The translations under genes were made by a program, and so were the position numbers. DNA of 64,000 nucleotides, from NCBI GenBank assembly GCA_963799845.1, contig CAWCYI010000006.1, forward strand, positions 1,504,001-1,568,000. The letters run 5' to 3'. The stretch is from an uncultured Nitrososphaerota archaeon (GTDB lineage Archaea; Thermoproteota; Nitrososphaeria; Nitrososphaerales; CADDZS01). The stretch's first letter is position 1. Each line of letters opens with the position of its first letter. The notes under the pieces are model-generated. The model saw only the letters and a list, made by a program, of their open reading frames with translations. It was not told where the DNA came from and did not search any database. Of this stretch, positions 43,500-49,470 are shown one piece after another.

Positions 43500-43874
43500 C
43501 TAGTCTGCGTTTTCCAATAGGGAAATTTTATGCATCGCCGCTTTGATTATCGCAACGAGACTTCCGGATTCGAGGATGTCGAGCTCGAACCGCTTCTTGA
43601 TCTCCTGGGTGATTGCCCGCTCGATGGCCCATGCTCCAATGCCGAAGGTGGCTTCGATCGATTTGAGAAAGCCTTCCGGATCCCTCAAAATTCCCTTGTC
43701 GCTCGTTCCGTTTTCCTTCATCTTGCTGATCAGCAGCATCCTCCAGTAGATCTTCCTCTCACCGTCCCGTCCCAAAACTCCCAACCCCTCATCAATACAC
43801 TCGATGAGAGCCATCTCGTCCAGACTGTTCACTATGGAACGAGGTTTCGGTTTGATTTTGGAATCTGGACTCAA
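43500..43874 (-). CDS. DUF3227-like protein
   Basis: IDEGLGVLG...PEGFLKSIEATFGIGA..IE..I. Confidence 0.7.
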   Translation of the reverse strand: MSPDSKIKPKPRSIVNSLDEMALIECIDEGLGVLGRDGERKIYWRMLLISKMKENGTSDKGILRDPEGFLKSIEATFGIGAWAIERAITQEIKKRFELDILESGSLVAIIKAAMHKISLLENAD

Positions 43875-43954
43875 GTAATTGCAAACGCTCGTTTAGGGTA
43901 ACGGCTAATGGTTTGAAATATCCCGCTCATGCCGTTTATTGCCTTAGGGAGTGA

Positions 43955-44165
43955 TAATCTATGTTAGGAATCCGGGTTCTGTCCAGTCTTCGTCGTGTGG
44001 ATAAGAAGCTGCGCCAATGACTTATCCCCGCGATTACGACATAACTTGGAAGCATCAACTTTCAGGAGTACTCCGTCTTTACAAGGTTCCTGTACCATCG
44101 CTTCACCTGCTTCCCCTTTCTTAGACTGGAGGAACCTCAGCCAGCCTCTGTGAGAAATGTTCATG
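43955..44165 (-). ncRNA. Putative omega-RNA (reRNA) overlapping the tnpB 3' end
   Basis: Expected position; hairpin GGATAAG...CTTATCC; boundaries suggested by homology with 49269-49470. Confidence 0.65.
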
Positions 44166-45232
44166 ACAGCGGCGACATCTCTATCCCACCATCTCCCACA
44201 CCTTACACACCAGAGCTTACTTCTGTGTACTCTACTGAATCTGTCCTCTTGGAGTCTCTCCCCGCATATTGGACAGAGTTTAGAAGTACCTCTGGTCTCT
44301 GCTTTAGTTAACTGAATTACTGGAACTCCTTCCCATGCAGCCATGTATTCTATTTGTCTTTTGATCTCGTTCCATGGTACCGAATTCATCCTCGCGCGAA
44401 AGTTCTTACCTTGATAATTCCCTTTTCTGTACAGGTTACGCAGTCCATCAATTTGTTCAAATACGATCGCTCCTCGGCCTTCCTTGGCTAGATCTACGAC
44501 ATTCTTCGAAACTTTGTGAAGAATCTGATTTACTCTTTCAGATCTCCGCCTTCCGTATTTTATTGTCAAGATTCTTCGTATTCTGTCATCGTTTCGCTTG
44601 AACGACCTCAACACATCTCTTGTCGATTTTGCAATTTCCTCGACTTTCTTCATGTCGAATAGTACCACTTTATCTGCATTCCCGCAGGTAACATTCGATG
44701 CGTTTCTGTCAATGCCGAAGAAACATTCAGGTTTGAAAGACGCAACAACCTTTCTGAGGGAAAACGAAAGACTGGTGGGAGTCAATGTGAACGACCTCAC
44801 TTCAATTCTTTCCTTTTCGATTGTCTGGATTGTGTGGTTCGTGAGTGGAATTCTTACGATCTTATCTTTCTTGGATATTCGAAAACAAAGGGATTGATCT
44901 TTGATCTTGAACTGAGAGCACGACACCAAAAGCGGTTTCTTGAGACGTGGGTCCTTTGACGTTATTCCCCTCCGTTCTGACTTCTTTCTCGACGAGAGAA
45001 TACCTGCAGCTTTTGAAATTGCGGTCAACCGGTAATAGGATAGAACGTGGAAATACTTCTGCTTCATGTTGGAGTAAGCAAGCAAAGATAGTCTCTTTAA
45101 CGAGGAAACATTTGTTTCGAGTCCAATCCTGATACAATCATTTACCATAGACCTGAATTCATTCATCAGTTCCAGTAACTGCGGAGATGGACTGGCAAGT
45201 GACTGTCTTACTGACTTCAGGGCGAAGACCAT
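43964..45232 (-). CDS. tnpB: RNA-guided endonuclease TnpB with intact RuvC triad
   Basis: GIDRN, VFEQI, TSKLCPICG...CVRCG..WDRDVAAVMNI. Confidence 0.93.
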   Translation of the reverse strand: MVFALKSVRQSLASPSPQLLELMNEFRSMVNDCIRIGLETNVSSLKRLSLLAYSNMKQKYFHVLSYYRLTAISKAAGILSSRKKSERRGITSKDPRLKKPLLVSCSQFKIKDQSLCFRISKKDKIVRIPLTNHTIQTIEKERIEVRSFTLTPTSLSFSLRKVVASFKPECFFGIDRNASNVTCGNADKVVLFDMKKVEEIAKSTRDVLRSFKRNDDRIRRILTIKYGRRRSERVNQILHKVSKNVVDLAKEGRGAIVFEQIDGLRNLYRKGNYQGKNFRARMNSVPWNEIKRQIEYMAAWEGVPVIQLTKAETRGTSKLCPICGERLQEDRFSRVHRSKLWCVRCGRWWDRDVAAVMNISHRGWLRFLQSKKGEAGEAMVQEPCKDGVLLKVDASKLCRNRGDKSLAQLLIHTTKTGQNPDS

Positions 45233-45399
45233 CTTCTTGAGACTTCCGCTAGAGAGATCGACGAACAGCTAGGGGTGCAATAAAATTCGAGCGTTTGATG
45301 AAACTACACCATGGGTAAAGAATAAGCCATGATCCCCTTGGAAATTGGTAAGAAGCTTCAATTCGTTACTCATCTCAAAACCGACAAAGACTGGACAGA
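43975..45399 (-). mobile_element. Non-autonomous tnpB element with terminal inverted repeats and an 8-bp flanking direct repeat
   Basis: TCTGTCCAGTCTTCGTCG (43978-43995) vs reverse complement of CGACAAAGACTGGACAGA (45382-45399): 17/18; GGAATCCG at 43967-43974 and 45400-45407. Confidence 0.7.
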
Positions 45400-45584
45400 G
45401 GAATCCGCAAGAATCTCTCGATACTTTCGTAGACAAGCAAAACTGAATTTTTCAAAATGAGTAAAAGAAATCTGCGTATATGAAACGAAAGAAATTTCGG
45501 AAAGTTTGACGATAAACAGAAGAATGTTCTATTGAATTCAGACAGGAACTGTCTCTTTCGAAGGATGATTTTTAGATCAAAGGC

Positions 45585-45845
45585 TTACGGGTAGAGGGAG
45601 TAGCTCTTTATTTCTTCTCTAACATTTTCCAACTCTTTCTCAGTGAAAGGATTGTATTTCCTTCGGGCGGGCTGTCCATTTTCCAGTTGAGAAACGAATT
45701 CGTCGAGCATGTATGAGATGTAGGAATCCATCGAATCCTTCTGGCCGTAAGGAGCGATATTTCGAATTCTAGCCGCCAGCGTCTTCGGAATCCTTACTTC
45801 CTGCAAGTTTTCGATGACTTTTTGAGACGACAACGTTTCTCGCAA
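45585..45845 (-). CDS. RHH protein; divergent paralog of 19287 and 48905 with a degenerate tail
   Basis: EVRIPKTLAARI...SMDSYISYML...PFTEKELENVREEIKSYSLYP. Confidence 0.75.
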   Translation of the reverse strand: MRETLSSQKVIENLQEVRIPKTLAARIRNIAPYGQKDSMDSYISYMLDEFVSQLENGQPARRKYNPFTEKELENVREEIKSYSLYP

Positions 45846-49269: not shown

Positions 49270-49470
49270 ATTCCGTCGAGTATTCGTCGGTTGGATAAGA
49301 AGTCGTGTCAGCTACTTATTCCCCTGATGGCTAGTGAACTTGGAAGCATCGACTTCCAAGATGAGAGGTGGATCATCTGTATGTCGTCGTTCCAGGATCA
49401 TCGTTTCACCTGTGCCCCTCTTAGACTGGTCGAAGCTCGGCCAGCCTTTGTGAACACGTTTCGGCTATCA
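49269..49470 (-). ncRNA. Orphan omega-RNA / tnpB 3'-end derivative with no TnpB ORF
   Basis: Colinear with 43975-44165: TTCGTCG..TGGATAAGAAG, AACTTGGAAGCATC, CATCG.TTCACCTG, TCTTAGACTGG, GCCAGCCT.TGTGA. Confidence 0.8.

Follow-up and report, generated by a model that had tools for sequence, protein, structure and literature searches.

A solo archaeal tnpB between IS6-like inverted repeats and an 8-bp duplication, probably mobilised in trans

A solo tnpB gene lies between IS6-type ends

The window, a 64,000-nucleotide stretch of DNA from an uncultured soil archaeon, contains a minus-strand tnpB open reading frame of 422 amino acids at positions 43964–45232. The protein scores 54.2 bits against Pfam PF07282 (Cas12f1-like_TNB; cut-off 26.3), 57.2 bits against TIGR01766 (cut-off 32) and 84.8 bits against NF040570 (guided_TnpB), the last under that model's cut-off of 100, and matches the ISDra2 TnpB chains in the PDB with an E value of 1.4e-7. 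As first read from the sequence, the RuvC triad is intact: D175, E259 and D352 (DRDxN), together with the zinc-finger cysteines C320, C323, C342 and C345, fall in columns that are conserved among 16 aligned proteins, and the window TnpB has all of them. None of the open reading frames surrounding the element is a tnpA, again as predicted, and two Y1 transposase (Y1_Tnp) genes lie elsewhere in the genome (C4:750843–751196 and C6:729242–729595).

The gene sits between inverted repeats of 18 nt that are 94% complementary (43978–43995 and 45382–45399), exactly where the original prediction had placed them. The right-end repeat, in the orientation of tnpB, covers 43975–43996 on the minus strand; its tip reads GGTTCTGTCCAGTCTTCGTCGT on the plus strand and matches the family consensus GGTTCTGTTAACTCTTCG. 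Read from the tip, this end (GGTTCTGTCC...) carries the GG tip and the cTGTt motif of IS6-type short terminal inverted repeats. The left-end repeat (45382–45399, minus strand) lacks the three tip bases GGT, which at the right end occupy 43975–43977 and so have no left-end counterpart. The reading frame of tnpB runs across the right tip (...TGQNPDS*), and its stop codon at 43964–43966 lies in the flanking DNA, outside the element, in agreement with the read-through described earlier. At the other end, 45233–45399 on the minus strand forms a non-coding leader to tnpB that is kept in the genome's second copy (G000:C4:1515000–1516432). That copy is 83% identical, and its alignment bounds coincide with 43975–45399 (query 36–1460). 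Both junctions, including the one at which left-terminal bases had been reported missing, are spanned with 0 differences by DNA contigs of two runs (43700–44119, 45150–45700 and 45313–45700), which may be the samples behind the assembly itself.

Directly outside the repeats, GGAATCCG occurs at 43967–43974 (right-end copy, plus strand) and again at 45400–45407 (left-end copy), identical at 8/8 positions, with a chance of about 1.5e-5 for one such pair. In two congeners (G003:C92 and G004:C156) synteny extends to either side of the locus but the element is missing, in a tally that took in the unpublished genome G001. The G003 empty site aligns cleanly as ...CTATGTCAGGAATCTGCATGATTTT and carries the 8-mer once, not twice, so the proposed target-site duplication is real. 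No empty allele, that is, no joint across the element, was found among the contigs of 4 runs. In a contig of a relative (X3), the match to the window ends at 43974.

The same ends recur across a family of tnpB elements

We examined 190 tnpB loci, in 152 of which the right tip differed from ACAGAACC by at most one mismatch, a conservation that is partly built in because right tips were chosen by pattern. Among the 88 elements that could be scored (unique elements whose repeats reached 14/22 and whose flanks were usable), the in-register duplication was 8/8 in 25, 7/8 in 11 and 6/8 in 1, compared with 0/264 slid controls at 6/8 or better. The duplication was 5/8 or weaker in the other 51 elements, which would fit decay or rearrangement, and many relatives have a degenerate left tip. 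Inverted repeats with 8-bp duplications therefore recur family-wide (36/88 at 7/8 or 8/8), as the original prediction had proposed to check among homologues. The end pattern itself was present in 97/301 genomes of the order, a tally that took in the unpublished genomes G001 and G270, against about 6 matches in total for a reversed control; none of the conclusions depends on G001 or G270.

Cargo transposons with matching ends encode an IS6-like transposase

Related archaea have transposons that share these ends and carry their own transposase; these measure 3–4.6 kb. One (L297) is 2,955 bp long, with repeats of 22/22, a duplication of 8/8 and a 378-amino-acid transposase with SWIM and DDE_Tnp_IS240 domains; a second (L298) is 4,554 bp long, with the same repeat and duplication scores and a 376-amino-acid transposase of the same domain content; the third (L299) is 4,626 bp long, with repeats of 21/22, a duplication of 8/8 and a 412-amino-acid transposase with DDE_Tnp_IS240 and rve only, so that the SWIM finger is found in two of the three. 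The L297 repeat is the same as the window right end at 19/22 positions. Their transposases score 51–63 bits against PF13610 (cut-off 27) and have the IS6 model NF033587 as their best NCBIfam match, at 102–119 bits (118.7 for L297), under its cut-off of 125. Derivatives of 110 bp (L301) and 763 bp (L295) have perfect 8-bp duplications, and other cargo of these transposons includes restriction-modification genes, membrane proteins and a 205-amino-acid open reading frame.

Only 1/190 tnpB loci has a fragment of the partner transposase nearby, and mobilisation of the tnpB elements must thus be in trans. The window element encodes TnpB only and no IS240/IS6-type DDE transposase of its own, with ends and a duplication length as in the autonomous elements. 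We consider it very probable that 43975–45399 is a non-autonomous transposable element with tnpB as its sole gene, moved by an IS6-like DDE transposase acting in trans. It belongs to a family of inverted-repeat-bounded transposons of Nitrososphaerales and related archaea. Acting in trans, the transposase would bind the shared 18–22-nt terminal repeats, make cuts staggered by 8 bp in the target and link the element ends to it, by either a replicative or a cut-and-paste route, generating the GGAATCCG duplication. This was also the overall interpretation originally put forward; the observations behind it were confirmed in every detail, and the proposed transposase now has a candidate at the sequence level in the IS6-best-match DDE enzymes of same-ended transposons with 8-bp duplications. 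Sequence comparison supports the 376–412-amino-acid IS240-type DDE transposase of the 3–4.6-kb cargo transposons, and not a classical IS6 element of about 800 bp, as the best candidate partner.

The partner could instead be a small IS6-like element of classical size (670–760 bp, with a transposase of 207–241 amino acids). Such elements have about 13 outermost repeat nucleotides in common with the tnpB elements (consensus GGCTCTGTTAACT...), make 8-bp duplications (perfect in 32/59) and are abundant in these archaea. Three copies are present in the host genome, one of them (L074) with repeats on both sides. Two genomes (G016 and G036) have both tnpB elements bearing perfect duplications and this small element, but give no match to the SWIM-type query, in tallies that took in the unpublished genome G001. 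Past position 13, however, the small elements have TTAAG... in place of the TCTTCG... of the tnpB elements, whereas the elements with the longer transposase match the tnpB-element ends over 18–22 nt, and the tip of the host genome's own small element is divergent (TCTGCCGTTAAC). We therefore regard a small partner as improbable.

No intact transposase with these ends was found in the host genome (86.7% complete). It has a decayed copy of the partner transposase with 6 stops (C4:1943275–1944048) and short C-terminal fragments, so the matching transposase that a genome search was expected to find was recovered only in decayed form. Because these copies are decayed and its left tip is three bases short, the window copy may no longer move. 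A PF13610 search of the genome returned one decayed copy, three rve-like genes of 355 amino acids and two genes of 221 amino acids; a classical IS6 partner was rejected, as none of these genes has GGTTCTGT ends. In two other genomes (G005 and G011), no repeats were found within 500 bp of PF13610 genes of about 395 amino acids; elements with a PF13610 transposase of this type proved to be 3–4.6 kb long. Co-occurrence of the tnpB family with either transposase type was weak across 61 genomes, which are kin and hence not independent: the longer-transposase query matched 8/12 genomes with the family and 18/49 without it, in a tally that again took in G001.

The right end is predicted to be part of an omega-RNA

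The last ~170 nt of the element (43975–44146, minus strand), overlapping the 3' end of tnpB, is, by comparative folding, a predicted omega-RNA scaffold with three covarying helices. In an alignment of 46 sequences (RNAalifold), 93.8% of cells were paired, compared with 31–41% when partners were slid, and the covariation score was 0.668, compared with at most 0.171 in the slid controls. This predicted structured RNA at the tnpB 3' end reaches the right end of the element, and helix 3 of the family alignment includes positions 7–12 of the right-end repeat, numbered from its tip, among its paired bases. The right-end repeat is accordingly predicted to be the 3' end of the scaffold, in line with the earlier suggestion that one terminal repeat serves this role. 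No Rfam family matched the scaffold at E values up to 1.

The tnpB transcript would extend past the right end and take in part of the flank. If the right-end repeat supplies the omega-RNA with its 3' helix, the guide would begin with the 8-bp duplication and go on into flanking DNA (CGGATTCCTAACATAG...). The predicted guide region is 43951–43974 on the minus strand, read downwards from 43974, with the right-end duplication copy as its first 8 nt. A peat metatranscriptome contig of 163 nt covers 43951–44113 with 0 differences; it is a weak hint only, and does not inform on where the RNA ends, since a DNA unitig is likewise interrupted at 44112, 1 nt from the contig end.

A TAM-like motif precedes the left-end duplication

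Directly 5' of the left-end duplication on the tnpB strand lies TCTTG (45408–45412, minus strand), which had been proposed as a candidate target-adjacent motif (TAM) and which fits a family-wide preference: a TTG/TTA/ATG motif ('T then G/A' at −2/−1) precedes this duplication at 27/31 independent insertion sites of tnpB elements. These sites come from related genomes, with identical sites collapsed to one. The window copy was entered manually, since its left tip, 3 nt short, led the family pipeline to score its duplication 1/8. Small IS6-like elements showed the same dinucleotide pattern at 19/64 of their flanks (Fisher 1.6e-7 compared with tnpB elements), and it was present at 10/31 mirror positions at the right end of the tnpB elements themselves (Fisher 2e-5) and at 0/12 flanks of six tnpB-free cargo elements with the same ends.

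This one-sidedness bears on whether TnpB does anything for the element. TnpB might be inert or host-recruited cargo, with the motif due to the transposase's own choice of targets or to common descent of the sites, given that cargo other than tnpB (the restriction-modification and membrane-protein genes and the 205-amino-acid open reading frame) also travels on these transposons and that the insertion sites were drawn from related genomes. We think this unlikely: the motif is one-sided and missing from 12/12 tnpB-free flanks and from most small IS6-like flanks, the catalytic residues are conserved, the RNA scaffold covaries and identical sites were counted once.

An active TnpB would fit the arrangement of the sites. 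An unoccupied allele would read TAM (TTG/TTA/ATG), 8-mer and flank, and would therefore be a full TnpB target, whereas at an occupied locus the target would be split by the element. TnpB could thus cut empty alleles, with recombinational repair from the occupied copy then copying the element in, and such cutting and repair would explain why surviving tnpB elements adjoin the motif. We give roughly even chances to the fuller proposal that a large archaeal TnpB clade lives only as a passenger of trans-acting IS6-like DDE transposons, with the right repeat doubling as the omega-RNA 3' helix, the 8-bp duplication supplying the guide seed (its first 8 nt) and insertions occurring almost only after a TTG/TTA/ATG TAM. 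Were it correct, TAM-adjacent insertions would arise either through TnpB homing, which selects among sites, or, more boldly, through TAM reading by TnpB that steers DDE insertion. The one-sided TAM-like motif beside a variable duplication speaks directly, by comparison across sites, for a role of nuclease activity in a DDE-mobilised element.

Relation to known TnpB systems

The window TnpB resembles IS1341-type solo tnpB genes (ISDra2 and SisTnpB1 of Sulfolobus), which likewise have the RuvC triad, DRDxN and zinc finger and, as described in PMC10640517, a 3'-encoded omega-RNA that extends to the right end and takes its guide from the flank, features that are predicted here. The ends differ. 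IS200/IS605 elements are described in PMC13565253 as having hairpin ends, neither inverted repeats nor duplications, and a TAM that touches the left end, whereas the window family has 18–22-nt inverted repeats, an 8-bp duplication and a motif 8 bp off the left tip. IS605-type hairpins, which would have argued against the original reading, were not seen at the window element's ends, which fold no better than shuffles (DNA-fold z-scores −0.77 to +0.62). That the element is an ordinary IS1341-type solo tnpB, moved as single-stranded DNA by a distant Y1 TnpA, with repeats and 8-mer due to chance, would accord with what solo tnpB elements usually are (PMC10691335) and with the two Y1_Tnp genes in the host genome, but is already contradicted and most improbable, given the end features described for IS200/IS605 in PMC13565253, the recurrence of repeats and 8-bp duplications throughout the tnpB family, the single 8-mer in the empty site, the distance of the motif from the left tip and the lack of a fold signal at the ends.

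Mobilisation by an IS6-like DDE transposase, the preferred reading, has precedents among DDE-linked TnpBs. Altae-Tran et al. (2023; PMC10691335) describe DDE-transposase-associated TnpB branches in transposons with inverted terminal repeats, as well as solo TnpBs that have the ends of autonomous elements and for which mobilisation in trans is proposed; the DDE partners of TnpB named in PMC13565253 are ISL2, IS630 and IS1031. The criterion for the branches in PMC10691335 is a transposase gene adjoining tnpB, seen here as a fragment at 1/190 loci, and the partners named do not include IS6, whereas the partner here is IS6-like. The IS6 family (IS26, IS257 and archaeal clades) is characterised in PMC7986276 by GG tips, the cTGTt repeat motif and 8-bp direct target repeats, with classical members of 700–890 bp and one passenger-carrying member listed. 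The present transposons depart from these in their 3–4.6-kb cargo-bearing autonomous forms and in a partner transposase with an added zinc-binding N-terminus, a SWIM finger in most and an IS6 score of 118.7 against a cut-off of 125.

Fanzor proteins, the eukaryotic TnpB homologues, are also RNA-guided nucleases carried on duplication-making transposons that have inverted repeats and are linked to DDE transposases (PMC13565253). The short, fixed duplication of Fanzor elements (TA or TTAA) counts towards the TAM, whereas the 8-bp duplication of the window family is variable and would supply the first 8 guide nucleotides, with the motif outside it. DDE-linked TnpBs are therefore already published; the link to IS6-type ends is apparently new, as none was found in the literature searched, which extended to PMC10691335 up to its supplementary branch lists.

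On the current view, TnpB benefits IS605/IS607 elements by restoring them once they have excised without a scar, and a 2026 review (PMC13565253) argues that this role explains the rarity of TnpB–DDE linkage in prokaryotes. The family described here would be a whole tnpB clade with IS6-like DDE ends and an insertion scar, in which the transposase is almost never alongside (1/190 loci); because it is not carried beside tnpB, gene-neighbourhood surveys would class such elements as ordinary solo TnpBs. The system also offers a defined scaffold of ~170 nt, a predicted short TAM and a single sequence under both transposase-binding and RNA-folding constraints. Species-representative genomes contain 397 relatives in this TnpB clade, and metagenome contigs contain at least 529.

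A tnpB element with inverted repeats and a target-site duplication

The 422-amino-acid protein encoded on the minus strand (ORF 43964..45232) carries a TnpB/Cas12f nuclease domain (PF07282, 54.2 bits, cut-off 26.3), matches TIGR01766 (57.2 bits, cut-off 32) and ISDra2 TnpB chains in the PDB (E = 1.4e-7), and scores 84.8 bits with NF040570, below its cut-off of 100. Aligning 16 relatives showed conservation of RuvC residues D175, E259 and D352 (DRDxN) and of four cysteines of a zinc finger, all of them present in the window protein, in agreement with the intact triad of the original prediction. The predicted boundaries also held: the 18-nt inverted repeats (43978-43995 and 45382-45399) are 94% complementary, and copies of the 8-mer GGAATCCG lie on both sides of the element (43967-43974 and 45400-45407). 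Three additional tip bases occur only at the right end (the 3' end of tnpB), leaving the left end short as had been noted, and the tnpB ORF indeed runs past the tip into flanking DNA. DNA contigs from two runs, which may be source samples of the assembly, cover both junctions with 0 differences.

A second copy in the same genome (L002, C4:1515000-1516432) is 83% identical and frameshifted, and its alignment to the window spans 43975-45399 and stops there. Its frameshift lies near residue 323, ATA stands where the start codon is expected, and its flanks agree at 6/8 positions if the left tip is taken as TGTTCTG; this sister of the window element is probably older and no longer functional. A search for the empty site found two congeners in which synteny extends across both flanks and the element is missing, one of which, G003, reads ...CTATGTCAGGAATCTGCATGATTTT with the 8-mer present once. 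Insertion thus took place in this lineage, with duplication of 8 bp.

Ends and duplications across the family

Relatives were found in 397/458 candidate stretches from species genomes and in at least 529 from metagenome contigs (529/598 among the matches listed), and the best 80 of each set were retained for analysis. They are common in Nitrososphaerales, Gagatemarchaeum, Nitrosotalea, Nitrosotenuis, Nitrososphaera, Bathyarchaeia and others, and two remoter paralogues in the host genome (50-53% protein identity) also bear GGTTCTGT-type inverted repeats. The right tip is within one mismatch of ACAGAACC at 152 of 190 tnpB loci, a conservation that is partly built in because right tips were picked by pattern. 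Left ends, located solely via similarity to right ends, have the same consensus, GGTTCTGTTAACTCTTCG. Among 88 unique elements whose repeats agree at 14/22 positions or more and whose flanks could be used, the in-register duplication was 8/8 in 25, 7/8 in 11, 6/8 in 1 and at most 5/8 in 51; homologues were thus flanked by duplications of at least 7/8 in 36 of 88 cases, and none of 264 slid controls reached 6/8.

Two Y1 transposase genes in the genome would suit an element of IS200/IS605 type, but the ends, checked for IS605-type hairpins, fold no better than shuffles (z -0.77 to +0.62), and inverted repeats, duplication and an 8-bp motif offset are all foreign to IS200/IS605 in the available part of PMC13565253. 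The ends, duplications and partner elements instead support the proposed non-autonomous tnpB element mobilised in trans by an IS6-like DDE transposase.

A proposed IS6-like partner transposase

The original prediction had quoted the IS257 repeat for IS6-family ends and called for IS6-type transposases with the element's own ends. Small IS6-like elements of related genomes (670-760 bp, 207-241-aa transposase) have repeats that agree with those of tnpB elements over the first ~13 nt, and 32/59 have perfect 8-bp duplications. A better match came from searching 301 genomes of the order for the tnpB-type repeat pattern, which occurred in 97, versus about 6 hits with a reversed pattern as control. 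Paired ends from this search bound three autonomous elements with 8/8 duplications: L297 (2955 bp, repeats 22/22, 378-aa transposase), L298 (G152:C1:776236-780789; 4554 bp, 22/22, 376 aa) and L299 (G143:C1:1251536-1256161; 4626 bp, 21/22, 412 aa). All three transposases contain a DDE_Tnp_IS240 domain and, of the NCBIfam models, match the one for IS6 best, scoring 102-119 bits, below its cut-off of 125. A SWIM finger is additionally present in L297 and L298, and L299 showed none at E up to 0.001. The cargo of L298 and L299 consists of DNA-methylase and restriction-type genes: in L298 a fusion of an N6_N4 methylase with an Mrr-like nuclease domain and a 507-aa ORF without family, in L299 an 805-aa N6_Mtase/Eco57I-like protein. 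At the right flank of L297 (G158:C1) another GGTTCTGT-type end starts immediately past the duplication, apparently placing two family members back to back.

The same ends and perfect duplications delimit a 763-bp deletion derivative and a 110-bp miniature consisting of two ends only (L301, G109:C57:4120-4229; duplication CGTAGGTT). Because a fragment of the longer IS6-like transposase lies near tnpB at only 1/190 loci, tnpB elements would depend on this enzyme in trans. The host genome (assembly 86.7% complete) holds only decayed forms of it, one copy with stops and short fragments.

DDE-mobilised TnpB is already known. The available part of PMC10691335 distinguishes six TnpB branches that are associated with DDE transposases and bounded by inverted terminal repeats, and adds solo TnpBs that share such ends and are 'mobilized ... 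in trans'; that of PMC13565253 names ISL2, IS630 and IS1031 as DDE partners. For the IS6 family, the consulted portion of a review (PMC7986276) lists GG tips, a cTGTt motif and repeats of 8 bp; a single passenger-carrying member and two miniature elements are recorded, and TnpB is unmentioned there. TnpB linked to IS6-type ends was not found in the literature searched, parts of these papers included, and the clade may figure in the DDE-branch lists of PMC10691335. Our results support an in-trans IS6-like partner here, together with a terminal repeat that also belongs to the guide RNA and a duplication expected to supply the first bases of the guide.

The right-end repeat within the predicted omega-RNA scaffold

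The last 230 nt of 46 aligned elements form three helices, with 93.8% paired cells versus 31-41% when partners were slid and a covariation score of 0.668 versus at most 0.171 in controls; 0/500 shuffles reached 0.668. This family covariation places the structured RNA at ~44146-43975 on the minus strand. Positions 7-12 of the right-end repeat pair in helix 3 with the segment right after a conserved GAAG, and the repeat is therefore under two simultaneous constraints; its predicted role in the omega-RNA 3' end fits this covarying helix. A 163-nt metatranscriptome contig identical to 43951-44113 (scaffold plus 24 nt of flank) is a hint only, because contigs give no ends and a DNA unitig also stops at 44112.

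At 49271-49453 (minus strand), a ~190-nt remnant resembles only the tnpB 3' end and scaffold, at 70% to the element and with 44% protein identity across aa 361-419; its right tip is degenerate and no tnpB body precedes it. This remnant, ~3.9 kb away from the element, appears to be the fossil of a lone scaffold.

A one-sided motif at the target

At 31 unique sites with duplications of at least 7/8, the trinucleotide immediately 5' to the left-end duplication on the tnpB strand was TTG (9), TTA (8), ATG (6), GTA (2) or other (6); position -2 was T in 29/31, and position -1 was G or A in 29/31. 'T then G/A' occurred at 27/31 sites. Small IS6-like elements showed it at 19/64 flanks (Fisher 1.6e-7), and the mirrored right-end position at 10/31 (Fisher 2e-5), tests that overstate independence because the sites come from related organisms; flanks of six same-end elements without tnpB gave 0/12. 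The window site, TCTTG, fits this pattern as the predicted candidate TAM. The motif is a property of the target rather than the element, since the G003 empty site reads ATG there (reverse-complement reading of the alignment). A classical archaeal IS605-type TnpB has its TAM at the left end, according to the part of PMC10640517 consulted.

We propose that an IS6-like DDE transposase moves the tnpB element in trans. The tnpB transcript would extend into the flank, so that the guide would begin with the duplicated 8-mer; TnpB could then cut unoccupied alleles (TAM, 8-mer and flank), and repair from an occupied copy would spread or fix the element. More boldly, TnpB might influence where the transposase inserts through its recognition of the TAM.

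Related elements in the host genome

Three small IS6-like transposase genes (C6:1636052-1636714, C6:1357199-1357861 and C6:177718-178302; 221 aa; NF033587 64 bits, below cut-off) are present, one with ~20-nt inverted repeats and a divergent tip and one without a left end. A C-terminal fragment of the longer transposase (L304, C4:1252494-1252610; 62% identical to that of L297 across 39 aa) has a lone left-type end (GGTTCTTTCAAGTCTTCG) 2.6 kb upstream, at C4:1249857, for which a search revealed no right-end partner; the two may be a decayed cargo transposon. A 2371-bp element without tnpB (C6:336646-339016; L013:1001-3371) has same-type ends (22/24), a perfect 8-bp duplication (AAAAAATC) and an inserted IS110-family transposase gene. 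Its 205-aa ORF, which has no Pfam or NCBIfam match, contains an RNQYAH motif that may be HEPN-like.
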